Below, in pieces: positions 1,475-53,955 of a stretch of DNA of 64,000 bases. The stretch is taken from contig CAZXML010000001.1 in the NCBI GenBank assembly GCA_964641245.1, forward strand, positions 229,460-293,459, written 5' to 3'. The notes below the pieces were generated by a model. The model saw only the letters and a list, made by a program, of their open reading frames with translations. It searched no databases and was not told the origin of the DNA. Every line of letters begins with the position of its first letter. Within the stretch, counting starts at the first letter, position 1. This DNA is from an uncultured Gammaproteobacteria bacterium (GTDB lineage: Bacteria; Patescibacteriota; Patescibacteriia; Magasanikbacterales; GWA2-37-8). The position numbers and the translations under genes are program-made.

Positions 1475-1489
1475 AGTGCGATAATTATA

Positions 1490-3580
<2,091 letters not shown>

Positions 3581-3589
3581 TTATTCTGG

Positions 3590-3751
3590 TTTGTCATTGC
3601 GACCCGTCAAGCGGGGAAGCAATCCTATCCACAGCTCACTCACTCTCTCCCCTACAAGGGGAGAGATAAAGAGAGGGGTTTATCGTTAAAATGTTAGCTT
3701 AACAACAACCAAAACCCCCTCTACTGTTCTCCCCCTTATAGGGGGAGAAAC
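3590..3751. repeat. Composite of repeat-element fragments (family B end, GC-hairpin fragment, two family C GGGGAGAG hairpins).
   Basis: The region contains tgtcattgcgac...gcaatcc and caagcggggaa. It also contains ctctctcccctacaaggggagag...gaggggtttatcg and cccctctactgttctcccccttatagggggagaaacc, which match pieces found at 36272, 32251 and 47041. Confidence 0.6.
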
Positions 3752-4540
3752 CTACTTCAAAAAACCTATATACCATTGTAAAATCCGCTCTCCCCACAAC
3801 ATAGCTACAAACGTACCAAGCGCGAGGTACGTTCCAAACGGAATGGCGCTGGAAAGATGCTTTTTGCGGGATGCCAGGAGTAATAAGCCGACAAAAGCTC
3901 CGACTACATACGCGATAAATAAAGCCACCAGCGTTACCGGCCAGCCCAACCAAATGCCCATCATGACACCAAGTCTAACATCTCCTCCTCCTATCCATTT
4001 TCCGCTGGAAATGACGTATTGTAAAAAGAAAAATCCTCCGGCGATTAGCGCGCCGATTAGCATTGATAACAAGCTATGTCCCAAGAAAATATTAAAAAAT
4101 AATCCGGCCAGAGCGCCAAACCAAATTACCTGGGGTAAAATTTCCTGATACAAATAATCGTAGATAAAAATTACAATGAGCAAGGATACAAAGGTAAAAT
4201 CCCGCAAAAAAAGCGCAGGCTCAACTGCCCCGCTGTTTAAATTTTTCCAGGCCACAAGCACAAAAATTAAGGCCGTGCCAAACTCTACAAAAGAAAAGTG
4301 TTTGGGAATTGCCGCTTTACATGTTCGGCATTTCCCCCATAACACTAAATAACTCAAAACCGGAATATTTTCGTACCAGGTAAGCTGACGCCGGCAGGCG
4401 GGGCACATACTGCGGCCGTTAACAATTTTAAAATTTTCGTGAGCGCGCCAAATCCAGGAGTTTAAAAAACTGCCCAGCGCGAGGCCGAGGAAAAAAATTA
4501 TAAAGTAAAAAAATTGCCCGATATCGTCCAAGTAATTCAT
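3752..4540 (-). CDS. pilD: Type IV prepilin peptidase (A24 family, PilD-like).
   Basis: 262 aa polytopic membrane protein with an N-terminal CPxC...CxxC zinc motif (MCPACRR...CRTC) and a conserved A24 layout. It lies adjacent to the pilin gene. Confidence 0.8.
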   Translation of the reverse strand: MNYLDDIGQFFYFIIFFLGLALGSFLNSWIWRAHENFKIVNGRSMCPACRRQLTWYENIPVLSYLVLWGKCRTCKAAIPKHFSFVEFGTALIFVLVAWKNLNSGAVEPALFLRDFTFVSLLIVIFIYDYLYQEILPQVIWFGALAGLFFNIFLGHSLLSMLIGALIAGGFFFLQYVISSGKWIGGGDVRLGVMMGIWLGWPVTLVALFIAYVVGAFVGLLLLASRKKHLSSAIPFGTYLALGTFVAMLWGERILQWYIGFLK

Positions 4541-4571
4541 ACGGACTAATTATATCATAATCAATAAAATC

Positions 4572-4604
4572 CACAACAAAAAACCCATCTTGCGAAGGGT
4601 TTTT
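4572..4604 (-). terminator. Intrinsic terminator downstream of the pilin gene.
   Basis: On the minus strand the hairpin aaacccttcgcaagatgggttt is followed by a T-run, directly after the pilin stop. Confidence 0.55.
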
Positions 4605-4624
4605 TGTTTTAAACTAAGTTTAAA

Positions 4625-5065
4625 CTATTGTTGAGCTATACCGGATGGGCTAAGGGAAATTCCTCCGCTCAATCCGTTAACTGTTGTTTCTAAGTTAGCA
4701 GTTACGATGTAAGAACTGGAAGTTGCTAATGTGTAAACGTAAGATTGGGTTGCTAAAGGATCTGACGGGACTTGACCCATATACGGGCTGCCACATCCGA
4801 CGGTTGTAAAGCCAGAAGCGTTTAAACAAGCTTGGCCAGTGGCTCCCAATGTGACGCCAGCACCTGCCGGGTAGGCAGTTTGATCAGTATAGTAAAGTTC
4901 CAAAGCGGTTTGTAATTGTTTTAAGTCGGACAAACGGCGCGCATCGCGGGCTTTTTGTCTGGCGTTTCCTAAGGCTACTACAGCTAAGGTTGATAATAAA
5001 CCAATAATAGCTATAACCACCAACAATTCAATCAAAGTGAAACCTTTCTTGTTCATGTTTTTCAT
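4625..5065 (-). CDS. Type IV pilin (prepilin with class III signal peptide).
   Basis: N-terminus [32 protein letters not shown] is a canonical G|FTLIELLVV prepilin cleavage and hydrophobic segment. A GGAGGGGG RBS lies upstream. Confidence 0.85.
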
Positions 5066-5152
5066 AGTTTCACCCCCTCTCCATAATTAATTCTGACATC
5101 ATTTTGCATACTTGGATTACATTAGACACGTCGCCATCATTTCATCACTGTG

Positions 5153-5236
5153 GAGTATTAAGTATTAGGTAGTAAGTATTATGCGACAATTTCGACTTGT
5201 ACGCTTAATACATAATACTTGATACTTAATACTAAA
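5153..5236. repeat. Family D element: inverted arrays of the heptamers (AAGTATT)n ... (AATACTT)n.
   Basis: Sequence gagtattaagtattaggtagtaagtatt...cttaatacataatacttgatacttaatact. Near-identical elements lie at 20182-20270 and 50955-51031. Confidence 0.7.
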
Positions 5237-5263
5237 ATTGCGTTTCTATTATATCACATTAAA

Positions 5264-5662
5264 CTATTTTTTATGCAAGACCGCCCGAACTTTATCCACA
5301 ACCTCTGATGGTTTAAAGTGGGTTTTTAGTAAATAACCGGCGGCGCCTTCGTCCAACCCGCGCTTAACATCATCTTTTTGGCCAAGGTTAGTAAGTAAAA
5401 TTATAGGGATATTTTTTATGGATGCGTCCGCCTTGACCGCTTCTAAAACCGCAAATCCGTCTAATTTTGGCAAGAGAATATCCAGCAAAACGATATCGGG
5501 CCTCTTTTTTTTGATATCGCTCAACCCCTTTTCACCATTATTGGCCATACTTACTTTAAACCCCTCCATTTCAAATTTTTTCTGATAAATTTCCGCCAGG
5601 AAAACGTCGTCTTCCACAATTAAAACATGGGATTGATTGTCTGACATAATTAAAATTAGCAA
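5264..5662 (-). CDS. Stand-alone response-regulator receiver (CheY-like REC) protein.
   Basis: 132 aa with the acidic pocket (VEDD...DIVLLDILLP), conserved T/S (LLTN) and K (GAAGYLLK) of REC domains. It sits inside the pilus gene cluster (PilH-like position). Confidence 0.75.
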   Translation of the reverse strand: MLILIMSDNQSHVLIVEDDVFLAEIYQKKFEMEGFKVSMANNGEKGLSDIKKKRPDIVLLDILLPKLDGFAVLEAVKADASIKNIPIILLTNLGQKDDVKRGLDEGAAGYLLKTHFKPSEVVDKVRAVLHKK

Positions 5663-5712
5663 TTAACAATTAGCAATTAACAATTGTTGGTTGTTAATTG
5701 TTTTTTGTTCAT
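5663..5712. repeat. Family F hairpin element (caattaacaattg palindrome plus ttgttaattgttttttgtt).
   Basis: Tandem agcaattaacaatt units form a CAATTAACAA/TTGTTAATTG stem followed by T-runs. The same motif lies at 26402-26470. Confidence 0.55.
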
Positions 5713-5715
5713 TAT

Positions 5716-6867
5716 TTAAACAATATTCCGTAACGCCAAACCAATGGCCACGGACATGCGCGGCCCTATTTGGCGCAAAATCGGTTTCAACCCCTCCTGA
5801 TATACGACTCTGGCCCAAGAATCTCCTACATATGTTTTAATTTTAAATTTTTCTTGAATATACTTTGCCAGAAACGGCATCAAGGCCATTCCGCCGGTTA
5901 AAATAATTTTTTCGGGGCGCTTGCCTTCATTGCCGGTTTGACGCAAATATAATTCCAAACTGACTTCTACCTCCTTCATTATAGGATCTACCACCGGCAT
6001 TAAAATGTCCAGCCATTTTTGTTCGGTTAATATATTATTACTGGTCGCGGCCAGATAGTCAAATAAATCATGCTTAGCCTGCTCAACTAGATCGCGTTCA
6101 ACCCCTAAAATATTTTGTAAAACCTTGTCTATTTTATCGCCACCCGATTCTATGCTTTGATGAGTAATTGGCATGCCCTGGTCTATTATAAAAAAGTTTG
6201 TGCGTTCGGAACCGATGTCTATTATCATAGATAACGCCTGATCCCTGCCAACCAAACATCGAGACAAGGCCGTTGATTCGGGTTCCAACGCCTCTAAAGA
6301 CAATCCGGCGCGCTGGAAAATTTTGGAATAAAATTCTATGAGTTTATGCGGTACGGCATTTACCAAAACCCGCTGTGATTTATCTTCGGGCAAACCTTTT
6401 AACACCTGATAATCCAAGGCCATTTCTTCTAAAGGCATGGGCAATAATTTTTTTACTTCCGCTTTAACAATATGATCTAGTTCTTCTTTCTTTAATATAG
6501 GAAGCGTAACCACCGCGTGAAAAACAGATGAAACCGGCAGGCTGACAACCGCAGTTTTGGATATTATTCGAGACGATTTGCAAATCGCCTTAAGAGTGTT
6601 CGCGTATTTTTCTATTTGCGCCTCGTTGTCACCCTCCCCTTTTAGGGGAGGGACAGAGGGTGGGGTATTCGCGGAGTTTTGTTTCTCTAAAAGACCGGCG
6701 ATATTTTTTTCTTCATTGGCCGCAAGTTTATGGATATCCTGTTTGCCGGATGTTAAACCGTACGAAAACAAAACCGGCCTGTTTTTTTCCAGGCGTAATT
6801 CTACTAATTTTATTCCCCCGGACCCGATGTCTACTCCGAGAAAGGATTTTGGTTTATTCCAAAACAT
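5716..6867 (-). CDS. pilM: Type IV pilus assembly ATPase-fold protein PilM.
   Basis: N-terminus FLGVDIGSGGIKLVELR has an actin-like/PilM fold with acetate-kinase-like phosphate loops. It contains an in-frame ~45 nt repeat-derived insertion (NTPPSVPPLKGEGD). Confidence 0.75.
   Translation of the reverse strand: MFWNKPKSFLGVDIGSGGIKLVELRLEKNRPVLFSYGLTSGKQDIHKLAANEEKNIAGLLEKQNSANTPPSVPPLKGEGDNEAQIEKYANTLKAICKSSRIISKTAVVSLPVSSVFHAVVTLPILKKEELDHIVKAEVKKLLPMPLEEMALDYQVLKGLPEDKSQRVLVNAVPHKLIEFYSKIFQRAGLSLEALEPESTALSRCLVGRDQALSMIIDIGSERTNFFIIDQGMPITHQSIESGGDKIDKVLQNILGVERDLVEQAKHDLFDYLAATSNNILTEQKWLDILMPVVDPIMKEVEVSLELYLRQTGNEGKRPEKIILTGGMALMPFLAKYIQEKFKIKTYVGDSWARVVYQEGLKPILRQIGPRMSVAIGLALRNIV
6628..6675. 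repeat. Family C (GGGGAGRG hairpin) element copy lying in-frame inside pilM.
   Basis: ccctccccttttaggggagggacagagggtggggtattcgcgg aligns with 47050 (ctctccccttttaggggagagacagagagaggggtatcgcgg). Confidence 0.65.
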
Positions 6868-7009
6868 AGTAACCTTAATTTCTAATAAGTTAAGTATACC
6901 ATATATGGGACTATTTGATAACTGGGGATAAATGATGTAAACTAAAGAAATAATGAAATTAGAAAATAAAGAAATTTCTTAATTTCGCAATTTCTCAATT
7001 TCCGTTTCT

Positions 7010-8389
7010 ATGAAACTATACAATACATTATCCAGAAAAATAGACGACTTTAAGGAAATAAAACGTGGAAAAGTAGGTATCTACGCTTGCGGACCAACTG
7101 TTTATAATTTCGCGCATATTGGCAATCTGCGGACTTTTCTTTTTGAAGATATTTTGAAAAGGACACTTCTATATAATGGGTACGCTGTGAACCTGGTAAT
7201 GAATATTACCGACGTTGGCCATTTAACCGGCGACGGCGATGAAGGTGAGGACAAAGTGGCTAAGAGCGCGGAGCTTATGGGAAAAAGCGCGTTACAAATT
7301 TCTAAGTTTTATACGCTGGCGTTTAGAAAAGATTTAAAAAAACTGAACATTCTGACACCAAATAAACTGCCCAAGGCCACAAGCAACATAAAAGAACAAA
7401 TTGCTTTAATAAAAAAATTGGAAACAAAAGGCTTCACTTATAAAACAAAAGACGGAATTTATTTTGATACATCCAAATTACCGGATTACGGAAAACTGGC
7501 GCAACTGGCCAAACAGGAATTAAAAGCCGGGGCCAGAGTAAGTATGGGAGAGAAAAAAAATACGACAGACTTTGCGTTGTGGAAATTCTCAACCGGAACG
7601 GAAAAACGCCAGATGGAATGGAAAAGTCCGTGGGGTGTTGGTTTTCCGGGCTGGCATATAGAATGTTCGGCCATGTCCGTAAAATATTTGGGCCAGCCGT
7701 TTGATATTCATTGCGGCGGCATAGATCTGGTACCTGTGCATCACACCAACGAAATCGCGCAAAGCGAAGCTGCCGAAGGCAAACCGTTAGCTAATTATTG
7801 GTTGCATGGCGAATTCGTGTTGATGGGTGAAGATAAAATGGCTAAATCCACCAACAACTTTATAACTTTACAAACTTTAAAAACTAAGAACTTCTCCCCC
7901 CTCGCCTATCGCTACTTATTACTGCAAACTCATTACCGGAAACAGTTGGCATTTTCTTGGGACGCTTTACAAGCCGCTCAAAATGGTTTGAATCATTTGT
8001 ATAATATAGTACGGACATGGGATAAATCCGGACCAAGTTGTACCGATTATGAAAAAAAGTTTTTGGAGGCCATAAATAATGACTTGGATATGCCCGCGGC
8101 CACAGCTATTATGTGGGAATTAATTAAAGACCCAATGTACCCGGGTTCCGCCAAAAGAAAAACAATTTTAAAGTTTGACAAAGTGCTCGGACTCGGTTTA
8201 AGTAAACTGAAAAAACAAAAAATTTCTGTCCCTGCGGAAATCCTGGCTCTGGTAGCCGGAAGAGACGGCGCCCGTTTTTCCAAAAACTGGGCAAAAAGCG
8301 ATGAGCTAAGAAAAAAAATAGAATCGGCCGGTTATTCGGTTGAGGATACGCCGGAGGGGTCAAAAATTACACCCATTTCTTCAATATAA
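7010..8389 (+). CDS. cysS: Cysteinyl-tRNA synthetase.
   Basis: 459 aa. [16 protein letters not shown] (HIGH motif) and KMAKS (KMSKS) are present. Confidence 0.95.
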
Positions 8390-17212: not shown

Positions 17213-17283
17213 TCCGAGGTGGTCTAATGGTAGGACAGCAGACTCTGAATCTGCTTATCTTGGTTCGAATCCAAGCCTCGGAA
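17213..17283 (+). tRNA. tRNA-Gln (anticodon CTG).
   Basis: Cloverleaf with acceptor tccgagg/cctcgga, anticodon stem gcaga/tctgc, loop ctCTGaa and T-arm cttgg-ttcgaat-ccaag. No CCA is encoded. Confidence 0.85.
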
Positions 17284-17286
17284 CAT

Positions 17287-21272: not shown

Positions 21273-23033
21273 TTATTTAGTAACTGTTAATTCTTCTTTT
21301 TTTCTGTGTCCCAAAAACAATATATTCCCCCGTTCGTTCATCCACGGCAAAACAAGTCTCATAATTGTTCTTGTTAAAATGATGGCGGAAAACATACTTA
21401 CCAGCACGCCGATTGCCAGCGTGACGGCAAAGCCCTGTACAAATCCTGTTCCCATCCAGACCATAAAGAAACAACTAATAAGCGTGGTGATGTTGCTGTC
21501 TCTGATGGACGGCCAGGCCCGAACAAACGCCTCTTCAGCGGCAGATTTAAGACTTCGTCCTTCTCTTAGTTCTTCTTTAAGCCGCTCAAATATAAGCACG
21601 TTGGCATCTACGGCCATACCTATAGATAAGATGAAGCCGGCCATACCGGACAATGTAAGGGTTACGCCGATTAATTTGAATAAAGCAAGAGTTAATAAAG
21701 TGTAAATACATAAAGCAATAGAAGCCAGGAATCCAGGCAATCTATAATACAATATCATATATATAAGTACGGCAATTAAACCATAAATACCGGCCAAGAG
21801 GCTTTTTTGCATGGATTCGGCTCCTAATGTAGCGCCTACTTTTTGCTGGCTGATTAAATCCACCGGGACCGGCAAGGCGCCGGAGTTTAAACGCTGGGCC
21901 AAAAGTTTGGCTTCTTGGATAGAAAAACTGCCGGAAATTACGGCGCTACCGTTTAAAATCGGCTCATTAACTCGCGGGATGCTAACCGGGGTTCCGTCCA
22001 AAAATATGGCAACCAACTTGCCGGTACTGCGCTTGGTGATATCGGCAAATAATTGTGTGCCTTCGTCATTGAATTGCAAAGCCACTTGAACCTGACCGGT
22101 GCGGGAATCCTGACTTACTTCAGTTCTTTTTAATTGTTTGCCGGATAAACCGGTTTCCTTCCATTGTTCGGATGGCGGTACGATATCTATCGGTTGTTTT
22201 GTTTGTACAAAAATTCTGGCAATAGTATAAAGAGTCGTGCTGGCGGATACTGACCCGCCGTCTCCTTGTTGTGAAGAAATTCTTTGTACTATATTCAAAC
22301 CGTCAAAACTTTTTACCAGTTCTGTGCTGACATCGCCGTCTTTGTGAAGACCTGCCCATTTATAAATATCCGGGAAAACCGAATTGTCTATTAAACCAAC
22401 CACTCCGGCTTCGGCTTTAGATTTTTCGTCTTCGGAATATTGTGTTACCGCATCGGCAAAACTCATACCGCCTTTTATAGCGACAAGCGCTTCATTGGCT
22501 TTCTTTTGCGCCGCGGCGTTATAATCGTTCATTTCTTTTGTCTCTGCGGCTGTAAGCGGTCTTAAAGGTTCGTTATTTTCTTCTTTAAATTCTAAAATAG
22601 GAGTTTCACCAATCATTTTTATGGCCTGATTAACGTCGGTAATGCCCGGCAATTCTACAATTACCCGATAATCATTGCCGACTTTGGTTGTTTGCACCAA
22701 CGGCTCGGACACGCCCAAACCACCGCGCACCCGGCGTTCAATTACATCGCGCACGCCTTCTACGGCGCTGGCTCTGTCCGCGTCCGGAATCAATGCGGTA
22801 TCAGCCTGATATATAAGATGGGCGCCACCTTGTAAATCCAGCCCCAAATTAAACCCGGCTGACGGAAAATTAGGAATGCCTAAGTTCGCTTTTTTATTAA
22901 CCCAATCTATGCCTCGGTTAGCGTAAACCGGAAATACTATTAGCAGACAAAAGACAGTTAAAACAAAAATAGCAAAAACACGCCATTTCAGGTTTTCTCT
23001 GGACAAAGGTTTTGGTTGGTTTCTTACGGCCAT
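21273..23033 (-). CDS. secD: Protein-export membrane protein SecD.
   Basis: 586 aa with a large periplasmic domain and a C-terminal 6-TM RND-like domain. Confidence 0.9.
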   Translation of the reverse strand: MAVRNQPKPLSRENLKWRVFAIFVLTVFCLLIVFPVYANRGIDWVNKKANLGIPNFPSAGFNLGLDLQGGAHLIYQADTALIPDADRASAVEGVRDVIERRVRGGLGVSEPLVQTTKVGNDYRVIVELPGITDVNQAIKMIGETPILEFKEENNEPLRPLTAAETKEMNDYNAAAQKKANEALVAIKGGMSFADAVTQYSEDEKSKAEAGVVGLIDNSVFPDIYKWAGLHKDGDVSTELVKSFDGLNIVQRISSQQGDGGSVSASTTLYTIARIFVQTKQPIDIVPPSEQWKETGLSGKQLKRTEVSQDSRTGQVQVALQFNDEGTQLFADITKRSTGKLVAIFLDGTPVSIPRVNEPILNGSAVISGSFSIQEAKLLAQRLNSGALPVPVDLISQQKVGATLGAESMQKSLLAGIYGLIAVLIYMILYYRLPGFLASIALCIYTLLTLALFKLIGVTLTLSGMAGFILSIGMAVDANVLIFERLKEELREGRSLKSAAEEAFVRAWPSIRDSNITTLISCFFMVWMGTGFVQGFAVTLAIGVLVSMFSAIILTRTIMRLVLPWMNERGNILFLGHRKKEELTVTK

Positions 23034-23089
23034 AGTGGGAAATGTTAAGTACTAAGCGCTAAGTAATTAAGATCTAAGTTTGTTTAATC

Positions 23090-23395
23090 TTAATGTATTT
23101 TGATATTTTTGGCAAGGCCTGCCCGCGTTGAAGGCAATATAATTTTTTCCTTTTCAACCAGCTGAGCGGGCGTTTCCCGGCCTAAAATACTATTAAGTTG
23201 TTTTTTTATATCATCATATTTAAATTTTTCCTTATTTTCACTCGTCACATCAAAGCCGCCATTTTTTTCCACTATAATAACATTTGATTTTATCCGTAAT
23301 TTTTGGGTTTTTCTTCCTACCTCCAAAACAAATAGGCCGCGCAAAGAACCGATTTTATTTTCCACCGCTACCTTGCCTCCTGCTTGCAACAGCAA
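23090..23395 (-). CDS. Hypothetical protein.
   Basis: The ORF continues upstream without an ATG, so the start is uncertain. No recognisable domain. Confidence 0.35.
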   Translation of the reverse strand: MLLQAGGKVAVENKIGSLRGLFVLEVGRKTQKLRIKSNVIIVEKNGGFDVTSENKEKFKYDDIKKQLNSILGRETPAQLVEKEKIILPSTRAGLAKNIKIH

Positions 23396-23518
23396 ATTAA
23401 GCTTTCTTTCTGCCTCCTCTATATCTTTGGCAATGGTCGCGCCGGTTTCTACCCGCTTTATCGCCTTTAAGTGTTCCTTTATTTTATCCTCTTCAGTACT
23501 GTTTGGAGAAATTTGTTA

Positions 23519-23624
23519 GGAACAGCCACTTAAGCGAGTTGGGATGTGTCATATGCCGGTACTTTACCCTGCTTCAGGAGCTTTACCGAGAAGCGCGGGG
23601 TGTTACCGATGTATCTCATCTTCT
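23519..23624. mobile_element. Solo left-end remnant (~106 bp) of the IS481-family element, inverted relative to the full copy at 36961.
   Basis: Its reverse complement matches 36961-37070 at ~93% identity, including the first 12 codons of the transposase (MTHPNSLKWLFL). No transposase body follows. Confidence 0.75.
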
Positions 23625-23631
23625 GCATTAT

Positions 23632-23690
23632 CCACAACTAAAACCTCCCCGGTTAAATCAGGGAGGTTTTAGTTGTGGCTCTATTTTTTA
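23632..23690 (+). terminator. Perfect 18-bp-stem hairpin followed by a T-run.
   Basis: ccacaactaaaacctccc cggttaaatca gggaggttttagttgtgg ctctatttttta. It abuts the IS-end remnant and the GGDEF gene stop. Confidence 0.55.
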
Positions 23691-24742
23691 TCTGGCTTTG
23701 TGTGTTTTTTATATTCTCCGTCTTTTTTGTCGTAATACCAAACCTGATTTCTATTCGGCTCACCCTCATGCTTTTCCGTAACTTTGACGCCTTCTTGAAG
23801 TTTAGTTTTTTCTCCCTTAGATAAATACAATCCTGTGTCGGATATTTTTTTCATTTCTTCAAAATTTTCATCATAGGGGGAAACACCGGCGCTGATAGTT
23901 ACTTTAATTTCTTTGCCATCATAAACCATTTTTTTATTCTCAATCTCCTTGCGTAAACGTTCCGCGAACCCAGGAGTATCACCATTCGCGTTTGGTGCTA
24001 TAATTACCATTTCTTCACCACCATAACGAGCCAAGGAGTCCCCTTTACGCATATTGGCTTTTAATGTTTTTGCAACCTCTTTTAGAACATAATCGCCGGC
24101 CTGGTGTCCATAAGTATCATTTACTTTTTTAAAATGGTCAATATCTATCATAATCATAGAAAACTCACCGCGATGTTTTACTTCTTTTTGACGTCGCTCC
24201 ACATCTTTGTCAAAATGTACGCGATTATTAATGCCGGTTAACGAATCTGTTCCGGCTTTAACTTTAGCTACAATAGTTTCTTTTATTGAATCTTCCAACA
24301 CATCACTGCCTTCGCCTGTTTCGTATATTTTAGTAGATGATTTTTTAGATTTTTTTTGTTTTGATTCGCGCAAGGCATGTTCTTCCTGGGCATAATCTTG
24401 CATAAAATCTTCTATAGGCACACCAAGATTTTCTGCCTCCTGGGCCAAGCGCTGATCAAAAGACTCACGCAGTAAATCTGTGATTTCGCCTTTAAATCTA
24501 TTTAGATCCTGTGCCGCCTCGCCTTCCGGATTTTTTGCCAACTCTTCAACGATTATATTATTTATCTCTTCCAAATCAGATTCTAAATCAGGGTCTTCAA
24601 GACCGGATTCTGCCAATATTTTCTGTATGTGGGGGGATGTCTCTATTAATTTTTTAATGTTTCCAAAATTCGGCCCAACCACGGCTTCGGCTTCGCCTTC
24701 TTGATTTTCTCTTTTTTCCGCCAGCTCATTAGTCTTGGTCAT
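23681..24742 (-). CDS. GGDEF-domain diguanylate cyclase with an acidic coiled-coil N-terminal region.
   Basis: DIDHFKKVNDTYGHQAGD...RYGGEEMVI is a GG[DE]EF variant (GGEEM). The RxxD I-site region is present. Confidence 0.75.
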   Translation of the reverse strand: MTKTNELAEKRENQEGEAEAVVGPNFGNIKKLIETSPHIQKILAESGLEDPDLESDLEEINNIIVEELAKNPEGEAAQDLNRFKGEITDLLRESFDQRLAQEAENLGVPIEDFMQDYAQEEHALRESKQKKSKKSSTKIYETGEGSDVLEDSIKETIVAKVKAGTDSLTGINNRVHFDKDVERRQKEVKHRGEFSMIMIDIDHFKKVNDTYGHQAGDYVLKEVAKTLKANMRKGDSLARYGGEEMVIIAPNANGDTPGFAERLRKEIENKKMVYDGKEIKVTISAGVSPYDENFEEMKKISDTGLYLSKGEKTKLQEGVKVTEKHEGEPNRNQVWYYDKKDGEYKKHTKPDKK

Positions 24743-24743
24743 A

Positions 24744-25070
24744 CTATATAGATTTCATCTTATTTAAAATAATTTCCATTTTTTTGCGATCTGCATCGTT
24801 CAATTTTTGTTTGTATAAACTTATTATTTTCTGATCAAGTTTTTTTCTGGCGGCGGCAATTTTATTATAAAAACCAGGGTCTTCTTTCATTTTTTTTGTC
24901 AAAACTTTTTTTTGCCACTCGTTTACTTCCAGTAAAGTATTTTTTAACTTATTTAATTTTACTTCACTTAAATCTTTTGTCTTTGTCAAAACCTCTTCCT
25001 TGAATTTTGTTTCAAAAACAAGAATCTCTTCAAGCAAACCGGTAATTTCTTTTTGCGGGTCTACTGGCAT
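24744..25070 (-). CDS. Hypothetical coiled-coil protein.
   Basis: 108 aa, Lys/Glu-rich helical protein with no recognisable domain. Confidence 0.45.
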   Translation of the reverse strand: MPVDPQKEITGLLEEILVFETKFKEEVLTKTKDLSEVKLNKLKNTLLEVNEWQKKVLTKKMKEDPGFYNKIAAARKKLDQKIISLYKQKLNDADRKKMEIILNKMKSI

Positions 25071-25075
25071 ATTTT

Positions 25076-26401
25076 TTACATCAATTGATAGCTTTTGGTT
25101 GGTTCTTTTACCCCCTCAAAGACGACGTCCTTAATATTATAAACGCCAAACTGCCGGCCATCCAAGAAACCAGCCATCGCCGATTCGGCTAACCAGCCGC
25201 TGTCTACCCAGTCAAACAACCATTCGTGGGTGTATTTGGGATTGTTTTGAGAAATGCCGGCGCCAATAGTTTTTAGCCAGGTACGGTTGTAGTTTTCTTG
25301 CGCGCCGACAGACGGAGCCATAATAAGGGGTAGGCCCAAACCAGCATAAAATACCAGCTCGCTTGGTTTGCTCCAAAGGATGTCGGTGGTACGCAGGGCT
25401 TTATTAAACTGATTAAAATAATCGTCCTTATCGATGGCGAATATAATTTGAATATTTTTGCCTAATAGTTTTTGGAGTCCACATTCTTTAATTTTTTCTT
25501 GGAAATACAAATAAACATCGTTGCGCGTGCCGGCCACTAAATTGAGGTGTAAATCTTCTTTGAGAAGCCTCTTTTTTAAACTATTCAAAATATCAGTGGC
25601 CATCATTTTTTGGGCCCCGGCGCCACCCACAGCAAAGGTAAGAGTAAGCGGATGAGTCCCGGTTGTTTTCTGGGCGTCAACTTTTAAAAAGTGGGAAACG
25701 GTATCGGAATATTTTTGCCTATATCTTTTTTGCGGATCCAAATTATGAATTCTGACCACTAAGTCGGATTTCAAAACTCCCAAATCGGCGCCGCCCAAAT
25801 TTTCTTCGGGCAAGGGGAAACCGGTAAGAAAAATGTTTTCGTCTTTTACGCCGTAAAGTTTCAACCTGTCTACCACCCGCCGGCAGGGAGCCAAATATTT
25901 TATCCGGCTTTTTTTCGGGTTAGAGGCAACCCATGTACGGCTGATATCCGCGTCGCACAATACCAAATAAATATCATTTTTCAAACAATGTTCTTCCGCC
26001 ATAAAAGAAACGGCGAAGAATGTGGTGATGAGTGGAATGTCTTTGGTGTTAAGAAATTTTATTAAATCTTCTCCCCAGCCTTTGTGTATAAGCGAATACA
26101 TTTCCCGGATCTGTAAATTTGGTTTTGACAAATCGCGGCGCGGGTAAAAATCTTTAATGCTTTGCAGTTTGTCGTATAAATTAAACAAATACTTGCCGAT
26201 TAACGGGAAATTTATCAAGCGCGAAACAAAGCCATAAAAAACTTCGGATTCATGCCAAATACGAAAATCTTTTTCGGGGATTCCCTGATAATTGTTGGCG
26301 CTGATAACTTTGCCCGTAGGAGAAAGGTGGCGCAAAGGATAGGCCGCGCGCTGATGCCCGTAGCCCATATCGACCGCCACTATCCAGGCTTGTTTGTCCA
26401 T
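25076..26401 (-). CDS. GT28-like glycosyltransferase (MGDG-synthase/UgtP/MurG-like).
   Basis: The N-terminal DMGYGHQRAA resembles the GGHxxAA motif of MGDG_synth/GT28 N-domains, and a C-terminal GGAGAQKM glycine loop is present. Start assigned to MDKQAW at 26401. Confidence 0.5.
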   Translation of the reverse strand: MDKQAWIVAVDMGYGHQRAAYPLRHLSPTGKVISANNYQGIPEKDFRIWHESEVFYGFVSRLINFPLIGKYLFNLYDKLQSIKDFYPRRDLSKPNLQIREMYSLIHKGWGEDLIKFLNTKDIPLITTFFAVSFMAEEHCLKNDIYLVLCDADISRTWVASNPKKSRIKYLAPCRRVVDRLKLYGVKDENIFLTGFPLPEENLGGADLGVLKSDLVVRIHNLDPQKRYRQKYSDTVSHFLKVDAQKTTGTHPLTLTFAVGGAGAQKMMATDILNSLKKRLLKEDLHLNLVAGTRNDVYLYFQEKIKECGLQKLLGKNIQIIFAIDKDDYFNQFNKALRTTDILWSKPSELVFYAGLGLPLIMAPSVGAQENYNRTWLKTIGAGISQNNPKYTHEWLFDWVDSGWLAESAMAGFLDGRQFGVYNIKDVVFEGVKEPTKSYQLM

Positions 26402-26470
26402 ATAAATAATTAACAAATAACAATTAGCAACTAACAACCCGCCAATCGATTGTTAATTGTTTTTTGTTAA
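26402..26470. repeat. Family F hairpin element.
   Basis: taattaacaaataacaattagcaactaacaa...ttgttaattgttttttgttaattgttaatt shares ttgttaattgttttttgtt with 5663-5712. Confidence 0.55.
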
Positions 26471-27261
26471 TTGTTAATTTTTCTCTTGTTGTTTGCCCAG
26501 ATAAAACCCATGGTCTTATCAAAATGAGAAGGAAATACCTGAACACCAAAGCCGTTGGCTCTTAATTTTTCGGCAATATCCTTGTGCCTAATACCCATAT
26601 GATACTCCAAAATGACAAAATTTACCATCGCAAAATCGCTGGCAGACATACTTTCAAACAACTCGTACTCCCCTCCTTCAATATCCATTTTTAAGAGAGA
26701 TATCTTTTTAATTTTATTTTTTTTACAAAAATCGGCAAAAGAAAAAGCGTGAACCGCGATGGTTTTCTCGGCGGTTTCGTCTGCACCGGTGTAATCCGCG
26801 AATAAGCGGCCGGATGATGAACCGCCGGCCTCTGTCAAATGATGGTTATGGCTGTCGGCGGATAAAACCAGCTGTCTTTCGCCGCTTTCCGAAGCTAACG
26901 CCCCGGCAACAACCTCCACTCCCAAAATTTTATTCTCGTCCAAATGTTGTTTAAGCAATTTTAAATTTTCCGGCTCCGGTTCTATGCCAAATATTTTTAC
27001 TTTTTCATTTAAAGCCCGGCAATACATACTAAAAAATCCAGCATGCGCGCCCACGTCTACTATTGGGTGCTTAGCGGTTTTTATAGTTTCATCCGCGGCT
27101 CGGTATTCTTTGAGCTTAAAAATTTCGTTAAAAACACTCTGATCCGCTTCGTCGCGCAGATACACCTGCCAATTGTGCCCGTTTAATTTTAGGTTTACTT
27201 TTTGCATTGATTTAACGTAATCACGCCGGGTAGCGTCCATTGAAACCCGGCGCTTAATCAT
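26467..27261 (-). CDS. FkbM-family SAM-dependent methyltransferase.
   Basis: VVDVGAHAGFFSMY glycine-rich SAM motif in an FkbM-like layout. Confidence 0.65.
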   Translation of the reverse strand: MIKRRVSMDATRRDYVKSMQKVNLKLNGHNWQVYLRDEADQSVFNEIFKLKEYRAADETIKTAKHPIVDVGAHAGFFSMYCRALNEKVKIFGIEPEPENLKLLKQHLDENKILGVEVVAGALASESGERQLVLSADSHNHHLTEAGGSSSGRLFADYTGADETAEKTIAVHAFSFADFCKKNKIKKISLLKMDIEGGEYELFESMSASDFAMVNFVILEYHMGIRHKDIAEKLRANGFGVQVFPSHFDKTMGFIWANNKRKINN

Positions 27262-27328
27262 TTTAGCTTAAAAACAAACAAAAGACAATCCTTGGTTTAT
27301 TAGGATGTTAGGATGATAAAACTATTCG

Positions 27329-27399
27329 TTCCGAGGCTTGGAATCGAACCAAGATAAACAGCTTCAAAGGCTGCTGTCCTACCTTTAGACGACCTCGGA
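27329..27399 (-). tRNA. tRNA-Gln (anticodon TTG).
   Basis: The reverse complement tccgaggtcgtctaaaggtaggacagcagccttTTGaagctg...ttggttcgattccaagcctcggaa is nearly identical to the CTG isoacceptor at 17213. Confidence 0.85.
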
Positions 27400-29321: not shown

Positions 29322-29861
29322 TTACATAAACACCGCTTTAAGTTTGCGGCGGCGGGCTTTATAGTCCGGCACAGCTTTGGCCACCAAGGCCCAGAACCGG
29401 AAAGAGTGATTTAGCTCTTTTAGATGACAAAGTTCATGAACAACAATATATTCGGCCAATTCTACGGGCAGATGAATGATTTTGTAATTAAAATTTAGAT
29501 TGCCTTTTTTGGAACAACTGCCCCACCGGCTCTTGTGATTTTTTATGCAGACGCGGTTGAAAGAAAAATTGTAAAATTTATTTATTTCCGCAATTTTTTC
29601 TTTTACAAATTCGCGCGCCTGCTCTTTTAACTGTCGATATTCACGAACGCCGCCGCGACGCCCTTCACGAAATACCGGACCCAACTTTTGAAAGTGGGCT
29701 ACTTTTTTTAATACCCAGCCGGCTTTGTCGGCCAAAAATTTTTCCACTTTATTTTGTGAAAAAAAATGCGGCACGGTTACCACTACGCTGGCGTCGCAAC
29801 GAACTGTGATGCGCATGTGTCTGGCACGGGCGCTTTGTTTGAGGGTATAGGGTAAATTCAT
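29322..29861 (-). CDS. DUF45/YgjP-like HExxH metal-dependent hydrolase (WLM/SprT-like fold).
   Basis: HELCHLKELNHS zinc-binding motif with a YgjP-family size and layout. Confidence 0.65.
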   Translation of the reverse strand: MNLPYTLKQSARARHMRITVRCDASVVVTVPHFFSQNKVEKFLADKAGWVLKKVAHFQKLGPVFREGRRGGVREYRQLKEQAREFVKEKIAEINKFYNFSFNRVCIKNHKSRWGSCSKKGNLNFNYKIIHLPVELAEYIVVHELCHLKELNHSFRFWALVAKAVPDYKARRRKLKAVFM

Positions 29862-35472: not shown

Positions 35473-35577
35473 TTGTCATCCTGAACGGAGTGAAGGATCT
35501 CTGTCCGTATAGTTTTCACCAACCAGACAGAGATTCTTCGCTTTGCTCAGAATGACAGTTACGTACGGGATGACAAT
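35473..35577. repeat. Family A TGTCAT-type element plus an extra terminal fragment.
   Basis: ttgtcatcctgaacggagtgaaggatctctgtc...gacagagattcttcgctttgctcagaatgacag, followed by ttacgtacgggatgacaatgc. It supplies the last 6 codons and the stop of the Mur ligase gene. Confidence 0.8.
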
Positions 35578-36896
35578 GCGGATAACACTTCTCTGGCAAC
35601 ACGGCGGTCATCCCAAACAATTTTCTTTCCCCCGGCCACCGCAATATACGGCTCCGTGCCTTTGGCGGTAATAACCACCACGTCTCCGGCTTGAGCCAAG
35701 GAAACGGCTTTAATTATTGCCTGACGACGGTCCACAATCACAAACAAGTCTGCATTGTCTTTTTTTCCGGACGAACGCGCGCCAACCGCCAGCATTTCGG
35801 CAATTTGTTCCGGATCTTCATCGTAACAGTTCACATCTGTAATTATAACATAATCGGTTAATTTACCTGCTATTTGCCCCATAGATTCTCTTTTGCTTTT
35901 GTCGCGACCGCCGCCGTCGGACCCAACCACCGCAATAATTTTGTGGTCATGACCAACCATTTCACGCAAACTTTTAAACAATTCGGTTAAACTTACGGGT
36001 TCGTGCGCATAATCTACTATCACCTTAAAATTTTGTCCTTCATCAATTAATTCCATTCTGCCCTCCACTAATTTTACGCTCGCCAACCCTTCGGCAATTT
36101 TCTCATCGGAAATTTTCTGCGCCCTGCCCACCGCAATCGCAGCCAGCGCGTTGTAAACGTTAAACCGGCCGATTATATTTAATCTGAATTTTTTGCCACC
36201 GACTGTAAAATCAGAACCATTCTGATCGGAAACGATATTTTCTCCGCTTAATAATTTTGTCGCGCTGTTTTTGTCATTGCGAGGAGCTAAAAGCGACGTG
36301 GCAATCCCATTGTTGGCACTACCAGTACTGTGGGATTGCTTCGCTTTGCTCGCAATGACAGAAAACGCCCACTTCTCCACCGCCGGAAAACTCAAAAAAT
36401 AATCCGCATGCTCATCATCCGTATTAGCAACAATTGTTTTTGCTTTCGCAAAAATTTTGGCTTTGTCTTTTTTTAGATTATCAAATCCACCGTGGCGTTC
36501 CGAATGTTCGGTTCCTAAATTAGTAAACACCGCCGTATGGTAATTCAATCCGATATGCCGGTACTGCAAAATTCCTTCCGAAGATGTTTCCACCACCGCG
36601 TATTTGCACCCGGCTTTTACCATTTGTTTTAATAAACTCTGAATTTTCCCTCGCCCTAGCATGGTCATTTTTTTATCGTTCAGCCAGCGCTTATTGGCCA
36701 CCTGAAATTCTACGGTGCTTAGTAGCCCAACTTTATTTCCTCCCGCTTCTAAAACAGACGCAATAAGCCGGCAAGTGGTAGACTTGCCCTTGGTGCCGGT
36801 TACCCCAATCACAGTTAATTTTCGGGCCGGCCGGCCATACCACCAATAAGCGGACCAGGCCAATAAAAAATGAAGGATTTTCTTAAAAAAAGACAT
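35559..36896 (-). CDS. Mur ligase family protein (MurE-like UDP-N-acetylmuramoyl-tripeptide ligase).
   Basis: VIGVTGTKGKSTT (P-loop), DYAHEPVSL and AKGTEPY motifs are present. It carries a ~30-aa in-frame repeat-encoded insertion (SVIASKAKQSHSTGSANNGIATSLLAPRND). Confidence 0.75.
   Translation of the reverse strand: MSFFKKILHFLLAWSAYWWYGRPARKLTVIGVTGTKGKSTTCRLIASVLEAGGNKVGLLSTVEFQVANKRWLNDKKMTMLGRGKIQSLLKQMVKAGCKYAVVETSSEGILQYRHIGLNYHTAVFTNLGTEHSERHGGFDNLKKDKAKIFAKAKTIVANTDDEHADYFLSFPAVEKWAFSVIASKAKQSHSTGSANNGIATSLLAPRNDKNSATKLLSGENIVSDQNGSDFTVGGKKFRLNIIGRFNVYNALAAIAVGRAQKISDEKIAEGLASVKLVEGRMELIDEGQNFKVIVDYAHEPVSLTELFKSLREMVGHDHKIIAVVGSDGGGRDKSKRESMGQIAGKLTDYVIITDVNCYDEDPEQIAEMLAVGARSSGKKDNADLFVIVDRRQAIIKAVSLAQAGDVVVITAKGTEPYIAVAGGKKIVWDDRRVAREVLSALSSRT
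36272..36360. repeat. Family B element (GTCATTGCGAGGAG...GCTCGCAATGACA) lying in-frame inside the Mur ligase gene.
   Basis: tgtcattgcgaggagctaaaagcgacgtggcaatcccattgttggcactaccagtactgtgggattgcttcgctttgctcgcaatgaca. Intergenic copies lie at 52370 and 53868. Confidence 0.85.
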
Positions 36897-36960
36897 AAAA
36901 TTTATGGCTGATACCTAAAAATTATACCAAAAAAATGGCAAAATGACAAGCTGCATTATG

Positions 36961-38130
36961 TAGAAGATGAGATACATCGGTAACACTCCACGCTTCTCGG
37001 CAAAGCTCCTGAAGCAGGGTAAAGTACCGACATATGACACATCCCAACTCTCTTAAATGGCTGTTCCTGACCAAGGAAAAGCTACCACAGGTTTTTTTCA
37101 GAGACAACCAAAAGAAATTGCTTGCCCATCATGATCGTTGGCGGCGAACCGCAGGCCTCCTTAAATTATCCAAGGGCGCGAAGAGCCGCCTCGAGTGGAT
37201 GATATTTTATGAAACGAAAGGTGAGCGGAATGCTCGTTTAACTGCCAGGCATTTCGGCATCGTTCCCAAGACTTTTTATCAATGGCATAATCGCTTTGAT
37301 GAAGGCGACCTTAAAACGCTCGAAGAGCGTTCACGCGCGCCCGTTAGCAAACGGGTGCGGGAGTACACACCCCTCCAGTATGTCCGGGTAATTAAACTTC
37401 GCAAGGAACATATCCGGTGGGGCAAGATGAAGCTTTTAAAACTGTATCAAGATGACTTTCCAAAAGATGCAACAATTACCAGTTGGAAGGTTCAATGTAT
37501 TATTGAAGTATCCGGCATCTACTACCACCCTCAAAAACAAGCTAGAATCAACCGCAAACGCATATTGTCGGTGAAGCGGAAGAAGATTACTGACCTCGCC
37601 AAAAAACCACGGCAGGGTTTTTTGGTATGTCTCGACACAATCGTGCGTTATGTTGCCGGACAGAAGCGCTACATTTTGACGGCGATTGACCAATACTCAA
37701 AAATTACCTTTGGCCGAATGTACACGACACATAGCTCGGCAAACGCGAGGGACTTTCTTCACCGCCTCCACTATCTGCTTGACGGAAAGATTGAAAACAT
37801 TCAAACTGACAACGGCAGTGAATTCAAATTGCATTTTGATACGGCCTTAACGAAGTTGAATATTCCACACTACCATTCTCGGGTAAGGACACCAAAAGAT
37901 AACGCGGTGAACGAACGGTTCAATCGTACCCTAGATGAAGAATTCCTGGCTATGGGCAATCTGATGGCAGATACCGTTCTTTTTAACCAACGTCTGACTG
38001 AGTGGCTGGTAGAATACAACTTCAAACGTCCGCATCAATCTCTGGGGTATCTACCACCAATTAACTTTCATTTTAAATATCATAAAGTGTTACCGATGTA
38101 CCCGTCTAGTACAACTGATTGACACATCGC
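36961..38130 (+). mobile_element. IS481-family insertion sequence (single transposase ORF).
   Basis: Transposase 37034-38122 (362 aa) has an N-terminal HTH and an rve/DDE core (DNGSEF...RPHQSLGY). An imperfect terminal repeat core TACATCGGTAACACT lies at both ends. The left end is defined by comparison with the remnant at 23519-23624. The right boundary is approximate. Confidence 0.8.
37034..38122 (+). CDS. IS481-family DDE transposase.
   Basis: HTH, integrase core D...D...E region, DNGSEFK and KRPHQSLGYLPP are present. Confidence 0.85.
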   Translation: MTHPNSLKWLFLTKEKLPQVFFRDNQKKLLAHHDRWRRTAGLLKLSKGAKSRLEWMIFYETKGERNARLTARHFGIVPKTFYQWHNRFDEGDLKTLEERSRAPVSKRVREYTPLQYVRVIKLRKEHIRWGKMKLLKLYQDDFPKDATITSWKVQCIIEVSGIYYHPQKQARINRKRILSVKRKKITDLAKKPRQGFLVCLDTIVRYVAGQKRYILTAIDQYSKITFGRMYTTHSSANARDFLHRLHYLLDGKIENIQTDNGSEFKLHFDTALTKLNIPHYHSRVRTPKDNAVNERFNRTLDEEFLAMGNLMADTVLFNQRLTEWLVEYNFKRPHQSLGYLPPINFHFKYHKVLPMYPSSTTD

Positions 38131-38147
38131 GCCAATTATGATACACT
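38119..38147 (+). promoter_or_regulatory. Candidate outward-reading promoter created by the IS right end.
   Basis: TTGACA (38119-38124, overlapping the transposase stop), a 17-nt spacer, then TACACT. An aggaaggg RBS precedes the ATG at 38180. Confidence 0.3.
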
Positions 38148-38179
38148 CATCACAGATACAAACAGAAAGGAAGGGTCGC

Positions 38180-38662
38180 ATGAAACGATGTACATCCTGC
38201 GGAAAGTCCGATTTACGTTTGGGTACAGTGTCTCACCACCTATCGGTCGGTGGGTATAAATTTAGCGGGCGAATGCCTGGCGAAATCTGTGATACATGTG
38301 GCAGAGAGACTGTGGAAGCTAAGTATTTGGTGACATTCGAGCTGGTGGTGGCTGGACTATTCGCTGAATCGGGACTAACCTCAACACCTGAAGCGTTCCA
38401 TTTCATGCGCCATTCGCTAGGTATGACGGCTGTTGAAATGGCAAGCCTGTTCGGAGTGACGCCCGAAACAGTTTCCCGATGGGAAAATGGAAAACTCCCA
38501 ATCGAAACGCGGTCCCTCGCGCTACTTGGTTGCATGGTCATGGATGCGGTTAATCGACGCAAGAATACCATGAATTTGCTCCACGCAGTTCGTTCGCCCA
38601 CGAATATGAAGGGGATAGTACTGGTGCTTGATGGAGTCAATGTCTGGGCTGACGTGCCCTAA
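38180..38662 (+). CDS. MqsA-like protein (N-terminal CxxC...CxxC zinc ribbon plus XRE-type HTH).
   Basis: MKRCTSCGKSDLRLG...GEICDTCGRETV zinc ribbon, then MTAVEMASLFGVTPETVSRWENGK HTH. No MqsR-like toxin is adjacent. Confidence 0.55.
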   Translation: MKRCTSCGKSDLRLGTVSHHLSVGGYKFSGRMPGEICDTCGRETVEAKYLVTFELVVAGLFAESGLTSTPEAFHFMRHSLGMTAVEMASLFGVTPETVSRWENGKLPIETRSLALLGCMVMDAVNRRKNTMNLLHAVRSPTNMKGIVLVLDGVNVWADVP

Positions 38663-44148: not shown

Positions 44149-44859
44149 TTATTTAACGGCTATGGCGATAAGATTCCGTCCGCCTTTTTTATCTGTCCAG
44201 TTTGTTCTCTCGCTGTAGTCAATTTTTTTTATTTTGAATCCGGCTTCTGTTAATAACCCGCTTAATTCTTCTTTGGGAAAATGATGATAATATCTTTCGG
44301 CTAATTGCTCGCCTTCAGGAGTTTTCCAGGGAACCAGAAAATCATTTTCTCCGATTTGCTTCCAACTTTTGTCTATTTTACTTTTTGCCCAATCGCTTTC
44401 CAGATTCCAAACCGTAATAATTAATTTTCCGGACGGTTTTAATTGTTTATAAACATCTTTTAATAATTCCAAACGGCTTTGTTTGTCCGGCAAATGATGA
44501 AACGAAGCAATCATGAAAACCAGATCAAAAAAATCTTTTGAGAAGCTCTTTTTTTTCTTGGCGGTGGAAAAAAATTTTATCCAACCTTCTTTTATTTCTT
44601 TTTGGTAATTTTTTTTCGCGATTTTTAATAATTCATCGCTTTGGTCCGTGCCAATATAATTCACCCGCTTCTCTTTTAACAATAAAACCAACCGGCCGTT
44701 TCCACAGCCCCAATCCAAAATATTCTGCCCGTTTTTTATAAACGGTTTAAACATTTCCAGCTCGCCGGCGTTATTTCTGGTGCTGTCAAAATACCTGGCT
44801 ATACGGTTGTAATCTTCGCGGGTTTTGTGTATAATCTTAGTTGTATCTTTTCTTAACAT
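44149..44859 (-). CDS. Class I SAM-dependent methyltransferase.
   Basis: Motif I ILDWGCGNGRLV in a Rossmann layout. Confidence 0.7.
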   Translation of the reverse strand: MLRKDTTKIIHKTREDYNRIARYFDSTRNNAGELEMFKPFIKNGQNILDWGCGNGRLVLLLKEKRVNYIGTDQSDELLKIAKKNYQKEIKEGWIKFFSTAKKKKSFSKDFFDLVFMIASFHHLPDKQSRLELLKDVYKQLKPSGKLIITVWNLESDWAKSKIDKSWKQIGENDFLVPWKTPEGEQLAERYYHHFPKEELSGLLTEAGFKIKKIDYSERTNWTDKKGGRNLIAIAVK

Positions 44860-46628: not shown

Positions 46629-46643
46629 TAATATACCATTTAT

Positions 46644-47030
46644 ATGAAATTACCGATGAATTCAATTATCGCTTCCGGGCCTGTTATTATAGAAAACAAC
46701 AAGGTTTTACTTAACCGCGAACAAAAAGCAGATGGCATTACACCTTGGATGTTTCCCGGCGGAGAAGTGGAAGATTTTGATAAGAGCTTGGAAGATGCTT
46801 GCCGACGTGAAGTTATGGAAGAAATGGGAGTTGAAATAGAAATAATAAAACCGCTTAAACCGATAATGCTGAATCAAAACGGAAGAGTTATTATTTTAAT
46901 TCATTATCTGGCAAAACGAATTGGAGAAATAAAACCAGGCGAAGATATTACAGATTGGGCTTGGCATGATATAAATAATTTACCTGATAATTGCGCACCA
47001 AACGTATATGGTATAATCAGCTCTCTATAA
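46644..47030 (+). CDS. NUDIX hydrolase.
   Basis: Nudix box GGEVEDFDKSLEDACRREVMEEMGV. Confidence 0.7.
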   Translation: MKLPMNSIIASGPVIIENNKVLLNREQKADGITPWMFPGGEVEDFDKSLEDACRREVMEEMGVEIEIIKPLKPIMLNQNGRVIILIHYLAKRIGEIKPGEDITDWAWHDINNLPDNCAPNVYGIISSL

Positions 47031-47040
47031 TTTGAATCTC

Positions 47041-47150
47041 TACCCAATCGCTCTCTCCCCTTTTAGGGGAGAGACAGAGAGAGGGGTATCGCGGATGTCG
47101 AATTACAAATACCCCCACCCTGCCCTCCCCCTAAATGGGGGAGGAACGAT
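47041..47150. repeat. Family C element (two GGGGAG hairpins).
   Basis: ctctctccccttttaggggagagacagagagaggggtatcgcg...ccctccccctaaatgggggagg. Confidence 0.7.
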
Positions 47151-47199
47151 ACAAAACGACATGAATTGAATTATTTTATTCAAACTTATTATATTTTTT

Positions 47200-52369: not shown

Positions 52370-52456
52370 TGTCATTGCGAGGAGTCGTAGCGACGTGGCA
52401 ATCCCATAGTCAGTACTACTAGTATAGTGGGATTGCTTCGCTTTGCTCGCAATGAC
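52370..52456. repeat. Family B element (intergenic, ftsA-ftsZ).
   Basis: tgtcattgcgaggagtcgtagcgacgtggcaatcccatagtcagtactactagtatagtgggattgcttcgctttgctcgcaatgaca. Confidence 0.85.
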
Positions 52457-52586
52457 AGATAAAGTTCCATTGAACACATTTTGTATTCAGCATCCTCTTA
52501 AACAAAACAACGGAGTGGTCTCCGTTGTATAGTTTATAGATAATAGTTTTTACTGTCAAGAAAACAAGTGCACTCTTTGTGTACAA

Positions 52587-53844: not shown

Positions 53845-53955
53845 TGTCATGCCTAGCGAGGTCTTACTGTCATTGCGAGGAGCCGGAGCGACGCGGCAAT
53901 CCCACTGTCGGGACTACCAGTACTTTGGGTTTGCTTCGCTTTGCTCGCAATGACA
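53845..53955. repeat. Family B element with an extra partial TGTCAT end.
   Basis: tgtcatgcctagcgag is followed by tgtcattgcgaggagccggagcgacgcggcaatcccactgtcgggactaccagtactttgggtttgcttcgctttgctcgcaatgaca. Confidence 0.85.

Follow-up and report, generated by a model that had tools for sequence, protein, structure and literature searches.

How a solitary end of an insertion sequence (IS) came to lie between two conserved gene blocks of a Patescibacteria genome, and whether it was ever a partner of the intact IS found 13.3 kb away, is the question raised by the window analysed here (the whole stretch of DNA under study, 64,000 nucleotides long, to whose numbering all positions refer unless another contig is named). 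A preliminary description of the locus had recognised a copy of the IS left end at this place, on the strand opposite to the intact element and abutting a palindrome, and took it as the possible mark of a former second copy whose loss, or recombination with the intact copy, could have inverted or rearranged the intervening 13 kb. The features on which the argument depends are collected in Table 1.

Table 1. Positions of the features discussed, in window numbering except where another contig is named.
Feature	Position	Strand	Details
secD	21273-23033	-	start of the conserved secD-secF block
secD promoter-like element	23087-23115	-	TTGCCA-17-TAAGAT; conserved across relatives
Gene X 3' fragment	23121-23511	-	last ~125 codons of a ~660-790-aa hypothetical gene
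IS481-like 5' stub	23512-23627	-	116 nt; left inverted repeat (IRL), leader and first transposase codons
Stub leader	transposase ATG at 23552	-	47 nt
Stub IRL	23600-23627	-	TGCAGAAGATGAGATACATCGGTAACAC
GATAA	23628-23632	-	5 nt outside the stub IRL; shares the last base of the hairpin stem
Perfect hairpin	23632-23678		18-bp stem, 23632-23649 / 23661-23678; 11-nt loop
GGDEF-domain gene	23681-24742	-	last gene of its conserved block
tRNA-Gln(ttg)	27328-27399	-	upstream boundary of the block common to L071
MurE-like ORF	35559-36896	-	
Intact IS481-like element	36959-38113	+	1155 bp; TGTAG…CTAGTACA
Transposase ORF of the intact IS	37034-38122		single ORF; runs through the right inverted repeat
Right-flank promoter series	window 38114-38185; L003 1146-1215; L154 3506-3560; L158 1158-1220		
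REP-like copies	11423, 28357, 29202, 30845, 31114, 34714, 35473, 46252, 60742 and partners		

Read from its sequence, the intact element is IS481-like and has diverged from the curated members of that family. One continuous 362-aa ORF encodes a transposase with Pfam HTH_28/HTH_32 and rve/rve_3 domains, the HTH being N-terminal, and as in IS481 of Bordetella pertussis and the rest of the family this single HTH and rve (DDE) reading frame has no programmed frameshift and crosses the right inverted repeat (IR). Candidate catalytic residues, read by eye from the translation, fall in CLDTI, TDNGSEF and NERF, 35 residues separating the second from the third, in keeping with a DD(35)E core of the rve type. 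The length of about 1.15 kb and the imperfect terminal IRs with their TGT…ACA ends (IRL TGTAGAAGATGAGATACATCGGTAACAC; IRR, as its reverse complement, TGTACTAGACGGGTACATCGGTAACAC) are likewise those of the family. So is the top NCBIfam match of the transposase, to IS481 itself (NF033577; E = 1.7e-55), which is full-length in covering model positions 2-282 of 284 but at 188.6 bits stays below the curated cutoff of 224 bits. The NCBIfam runner-up was IS3 at 94 bits; elements of the IS3 family share the rve-type DDE core and the TG…CA termini, but have two overlapping ORFs with a programmed frameshift where the window element has only one. In metagenomes the transposase family is abundant (3703 proteins at E ≤ 1e-20), and the annotation of one close member gives a Patescibacteria bacterium as its source; a Patescibacteria (CPR) host is a further point in which the element differs from the IS481 family as usually met. 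A contig from another metagenome, L003, carries a variant whose transposase is 95% identical to that of the window, a scan of viral contigs found no further copies of the IS, and exact look-ups of the transposase and of an MqsA-like protein found neither on record.

The boundaries of the element were set by the points at which the window copy diverges from the copies L003, L154, L155 and L158, and across these the flanks part immediately past …CTAGTACA on the right and ahead of TG(T/C)A on the left. Alternative boundaries, 10 nt beyond these on the left and 6 nt on the right, which would have made TGACA the duplicated target, were judged less likely than the TG…CA ends given the perfect 5-bp target-site duplication, GTATA, around L154, the only other copy with two clean flanks. 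This apparent length, from a single copy, compares with duplications of 2-15 bp, mostly of 6, in the IS481 family (PMC10045372). The intact element of the window has CATTA (36954-36958) on its left and ACTGA (38114-38118) on its right, and hence no duplication, which hints at a past recombination or an adjacent deletion at that site in which the stub had no part.

As for the stub itself, its terminus at 23627 reads TGCAG, and its coding part (MTHPNSLKWLFLT) holds 13 full transposase codons and 2 nt more, the IS homology stopping after AACAAA at 23512. That the first transposase codons are present had been seen before, with a count of 12 that fell slightly short; the identity then put at ~93% comes to 94% over the bases it had delimited (100 of 106 matching), and the opposite strand was equally borne out, the inverted arms 23512-23634 and 36952-37074 being 91% complementary over 123 nt; blastn gives the repeat an E of about 1e-44. 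Along its whole length of 116 positions the stub shows 9 differences from the resident IS (92% identity), and it matches the left end of the L003 variant at 102 of 106 (96%). All differences in its full codons, whether from the resident IS or from L003, are synonymous, and so the parent of the stub was presumably a functional element. That parent appears to have come from a sub-lineage other than that of the resident IS, the stub being no duplicate of the copy at 37 kb.

The 14-nt IR core TACATCGGTAACAC occurs three times in the 64 kb, against a chance expectation of 0.24 occurrences in shuffles: at both ends of the full IS and in the stub (23600-23613, minus strand). A search with this core found no second IR near the stub, and in the stub region tblastn found transposase residues 1-14 and no others. 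Beyond 23512 there is no likeness to the IS interior, local and collinear alignments being no better than shuffles, and on that ground the notion that the DNA past the breakpoint is decayed IS interior was rejected. With one IR, an internal breakpoint and no transposase-coding capacity the stub is a solo, truncated IS end, and having neither a second inverted repeat nor a transposase it cannot move. A MITE was also considered and set aside, there being no IRR near the stub and no further copies in the window. The earlier proposal of a relic of a former second IS copy, lying in inverted orientation, is supported by all of this. If the IS duplicates 5 bp of its target, as the GTATA on both sides of L154 suggests, the GATAA just outside the stub IRL would be what is left of one such pair.

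Convincing homology to another gene, here called gene X, begins at ISPNSTEEDK (23512-23510), at the first base past the IS homology. The reading frame beside the stub aligns to the last ~110-125 residues of proteins of 660-790 aa (E down to 3e-30), and an exhaustive HMMER search with this ORF returned ten relatives; the family includes MBI2037628.1, a hypothetical protein of Cand. Magasanikbacteria. A word-indexed search with the same orphan ORF gave the self-match only, Pfam and NCBIfam gave nothing for it, and Pfam gave nothing for the gene X proteins. An apparent extension of the gene X homology into the stub, to 23545, was judged spurious, crossing as it does a stop codon with 3 of 10 identities. 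The fragment has no natural stop, and its frame runs on into the secD −10 box and finds a stop codon there. Gene callers report it as an ORF of 99-101 aa at 23090-23395, and this "hypothetical protein" is a pseudogene stub and no real gene. As an observation apart, full-length gene X relatives carry a GGDEL motif (…VGGDELTLAI…), which suggests that the family may possess a degenerate cyclase-like domain.

On either side of these two fragments gene order is well conserved. To the right the block made up of tRNA-Gln(ttg), an FkbM methyltransferase, a DUF6938 protein, a small ORF (~105 aa) and the GGDEF gene is common to the window and L071, with protein identities of 59%, 82%, 55% and 63% for the four genes in that order, and the nucleotide homology ends precisely with the GGDEF stop codon. 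On the left side many relatives are collinear with the window over secD-secF and what lies beyond, homology starting at about 23121, and the relatives of secD, the best of which is 84% identical, put the window near Candidatus Magasanikbacteria. The gene directly upstream of secD is secA in about 25 GTDB genomes and about 50 metagenome contigs, and in the closest relatives shown the secA stop codon is close to the secD promoter-like element. No secA was found in the 64-kb window, and a metagenome scan for the secA of this same population returned relatives alone, nearly all of which, where enough downstream sequence was present, show the secA-secD adjacency. The near-universal secA-secD-secF order of Magasanikbacteria-like Patescibacteria is broken in the lineage of the window. 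The 560 bp between the two conserved blocks form a patchwork of terminator hairpin, IS 5' stub, gene X 3' stub and secD promoter.

Some further features of these blocks may be recorded here. The four-gene cassette that ends with the GGDEF gene occupies 23681-27261 in the window and 7514-11110 in L071. Between tRNA-Gln(ttg) and the methyltransferase gene L071 has a 6.9-kb integrative island (218-7216) that carries a large serine recombinase, an HTH protein and a DEAD/SNF2 helicase. A 17-nt repeat of the tRNA 3' end marks the limits of this island, and the GGDEF cassette is accordingly chromosomal in L071; the tRNA-Gln of the window is unoccupied. The possibility that the cassette is cargo of a mobile island was rejected because the L071 island ends at the tRNA-Gln repeat upstream of it. 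A 74-nt inverted repeat at 17213-17284 and 27328-27399 is made up of two tRNA-Gln genes (ctg and ttg) on opposite strands. At another locus, window 44152-48429 against 7598-12134 of L072 (Magasanikbacteria), a radical-SAM gene and SHMT are separated in L072 by a gene for a 281-aa GGDEF protein; the window has both flanking genes, with only about 600 nt between them and no GGDEF gene.

A local deletion that took away the IS and gene X beside the GGDEF terminator, and left an inert stub behind, is the probable explanation of this arrangement. An IS481-like element of a sub-lineage unlike the resident copy would once have sat between the GGDEF terminator hairpin and a co-oriented gene X, having inserted just downstream of the terminator as is expected of a tolerated intergenic insertion. 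A single illegitimate deletion of roughly 3 kb would then have removed the IS from transposase codon 14 onward together with the promoter of gene X and roughly its first 610 codons, fusing transposase codon 14 to about codon 610 of gene X and destroying both. What would remain is the inert patchwork seen today, in which the hairpin, 4 nt, the IS left end and the last ~125 gene X codons lead into the secD promoter. An intact IS together with an intact gene X was found at this site in no relative and no population variant, so that the ancestral state is a reconstruction; the second abrupt junction, at about 23121, is not explained by a model of one deletion.

In having a single IR, a few transposase codons and an abrupt internal breakpoint, with a neighbouring gene cut at the same point and synteny broken around the site, the locus resembles known truncated IS relics and IS-associated deletion scars. 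It differs from the latter in one respect, which is that the deletion endpoint falls inside the IS. Transposase-mediated adjacent deletion leaves the IS whole. With its endpoint inside the element the deletion is the product neither of that process nor of recombination between two IS copies, and the stub is an IS relic of an ordinary sort, left in this Patescibacteria genome as the scar of a deletion beside a terminator. Of the rearrangement proposed earlier, a lineage-specific rearranged interval around the stub stands, but what is directly recorded there is this local deletion and not an event of 13 kb.

The hairpin beside the stub is the longest perfect hairpin in the window, with a folding energy of -35.8 kcal/mol (z = -9.5). 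It is a perfect 18-bp palindrome, as first described, lying 4 nt from the IS terminus at 23627, and the GGDEF stop is indeed directly adjacent on its other side (TAG at 23681-23683, 2 nt away). Its core, AAAACCTCCC…GGGAGGTTTT, has the GC stem CCTCCC/GGGAGG set between a mutually pairing A-tract and T-tract, and the A-tract, GC stem and T-tract are also the layout of the other perfect hairpins in the window, which are typical bidirectional terminators. The position immediately past a stop codon is a further likeness to bidirectional Rho-independent terminators, from which the hairpin differs in a stem that is 8 bp longer (CCACAACT/AGTTGTGG), in the 11-nt loop and in a U-tract that is interrupted (GGGAGG is followed by UUUUAGUU on the 3' side) and sits within the extended stem. 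A terminator consensus scan left the hairpin uncalled, the loop limit of the scanner being 8 against a loop of 11. In 22900-23900 no Rfam match rose above chance, all being sub-threshold with E at least 0.6. No other copy with up to 3 mismatches was found in the window, and this single occurrence led to the rejection of a repeat element. Overall the hairpin resembles a bidirectional intrinsic terminator of the GGDEF operon rather than a feature of the IS, and would presumably act as such.

It is unlikely that the hairpin was instead a structure-specific insertion target of the IS family, or a palindrome made during insertion or repair, even though the IS end is merely 4 nt from the base of the stem, the stem is unusually long and perfect, its outer part GTTGTGG resembles the left flank of L154 (GAGTGTGG), and no such hairpin follows the orthologous GGDEF gene in L071. 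The left flanks of other IS copies are mostly free of hairpins: those of the resident IS, L154 and L157 have none, and L156 alone lies 11 nt past a hairpin, one that is terminator-like. A core layout that matches the terminators of the window, directly after a stop codon, and a single occurrence that speaks against a repeat element point the same way, and the hairpin is best read as belonging to the GGDEF gene and not to the IS.

A role for the stub itself is distinctly unlikely. Such a role would require that the leader, or a hybrid promoter across the junction of hairpin and IS, came to drive transcription toward secDF once secDF had been uncoupled from secA, and in its favour are the orientation of the stub, which points at secD, the invariance of its sequence in three assemblies, and a promoter-like TTAACC-18-GATAAT that spans the junction on the correct strand (23656-23627, minus strand). 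This last is a 9/12 match of a kind found 6 times against 4.7 expected in shuffles and is therefore not enriched, and secD retains a promoter-like element of its own that is conserved across relatives. In the standard model of IS expression a structure involving the IR and the start codon blocks translation of read-through transcripts. The predicted RNA fold of the intact copies does pair the IR core with the region of the transposase AUG (z = -2.3), but that leader fold is not significant in the stub (z = -0.2). The stub, on the deletion account favoured here, is simply inert.

It is very improbable that homologous recombination between two IS copies, with the stub and the intact IS as its end points, inverted or otherwise rearranged the 13.3 kb that separates them. 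The copies are inverted with both IRL ends toward this segment, the intact IS has no target-site duplication (CATTA against ACTGA), and next to the stub the gene order departs from that of all relatives in having no secA upstream of secD. Loss of the target-site duplication is a classic sign of recombination between IS copies. However, the predictions of such an event fail. With secA upstream of secD in relatives, a single inversion of 23.6-36.9 kb predicts an inverted secA at about 36.9 kb, where instead the MurE-like ligase gene adjoins the intact IS; and the GATAA that flanks the stub IRL should equal the ACTGA that flanks the intact IRR, and does not. Gene order likewise goes against the 13-kb proposal of the preliminary description, in that a YgjP-like gene (29322-29861) is upstream of and co-oriented with secD both in the window and in four relatives. 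The genes from 18.6 to 36.9 kb are all on one strand and the GC skew shows no reversal at either site, which is weak evidence in the same direction. Finally the stub is nearer to the foreign L003 variant (96%) than to the resident copy (92%), and no mosaic identity profile was seen in the intact IS when compared with L003. The intact IS, in lacking its duplication, may record a different event.

The junctions are real features of the genome. Over the stretch that leads from the DUF6938 gene through the GGDEF gene, the hairpin and the stub into secD, two Logan contigs from different runs (L001 and L002) match the window at 100% identity. A JGI contig (L070) differs from the window by 7 SNPs in 12,970 nt (99.95% identity) and has the same intact IS between the same genes, so that support across the junctions comes from three independent assemblies. 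A chimera in which contigs were mis-joined through the short IS repeat can accordingly be dismissed: IS copies often break or mis-join assemblies, the window is from a metagenome-derived genome and most contigs with homologous transposases are merely 1.2-2 kb long, but two independent Logan assemblies span DUF6938 to secD at 100% identity, and a stub with 9 differences from the resident IS in 116 positions is no collapsed repeat.

The neighbourhood of the intact IS and the window at large hold other repeats, noted here for completeness. An 88-nt palindromic repeat has one copy (36273-36360) in frame inside the MurE-like ORF, where it encodes …VIASKAKQSHSTGSANNGIATSLLAPRND…, and two that are intergenic (52370-52457 and 53868-53955); an in-frame element within a Mur ligase gene is reminiscent of the in-frame palindromic elements of Rickettsia. 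The insert in the MurE-like protein lies in residues 160-233, a stretch without alignment to solved MurE structures. A REP-like palindromic element, TTGTCATCCTGAA…GAAGGATCTCTGTC and its inverse, has at least nine copies in the window, and smaller repeat families are represented by AGTATTAAGTATTA… and CTCCCCTTTTAGGGGAG….

The surroundings of the IS copies bear on where the element inserts. Among the copies whose right flank is present, the four closest (window, L003, L154 and L158) all have, after the terminal TACA, 5 variable nt, TTGAC(A/T), 17 nt, TANNNT, an RBS and an ATG, the gene so introduced being co-oriented with the IS, and the flanks are otherwise unrelated among the four. A location exactly 5 nt upstream of a TTGAC −35-like hexamer is one more way in which these close copies differ from the IS481 family. 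It is possible, if on balance doubtful, that this IS481-like family of Patescibacteria picks its targets by promoter architecture, making a 5-bp duplication just upstream of a sigma-70-type −35 hexamer; an alternative is that the IS end itself carries an outward-facing −35 box. The reconstructed site of the stub, between the GGDEF terminator and the promoter of gene X, would match that of the intact relatives in lying just upstream of the promoter of a co-oriented gene, and so fits the promoter-adjacent pattern; L156, with its terminator-like hairpin 11 nt ahead of the IS, resembles that site on the left as well.

The main value of these results is in annotation hygiene and genome history, in that the locus holds a pseudogene stub and what is probably a terminator, and no 13-kb inversion is needed to account for it. 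A promoter-adjacent insertion rule, seen in four copies, is the only item of possible specialist interest beyond the genome of the window. For the biology of these organisms, the locus shows that the small genomes of CPR/Patescibacteria harbour IS481-like elements that are active, that illegitimate deletion is a way in which these are lost, and that an otherwise very stable secA-secD-secF order has been broken in the lineage of the window.
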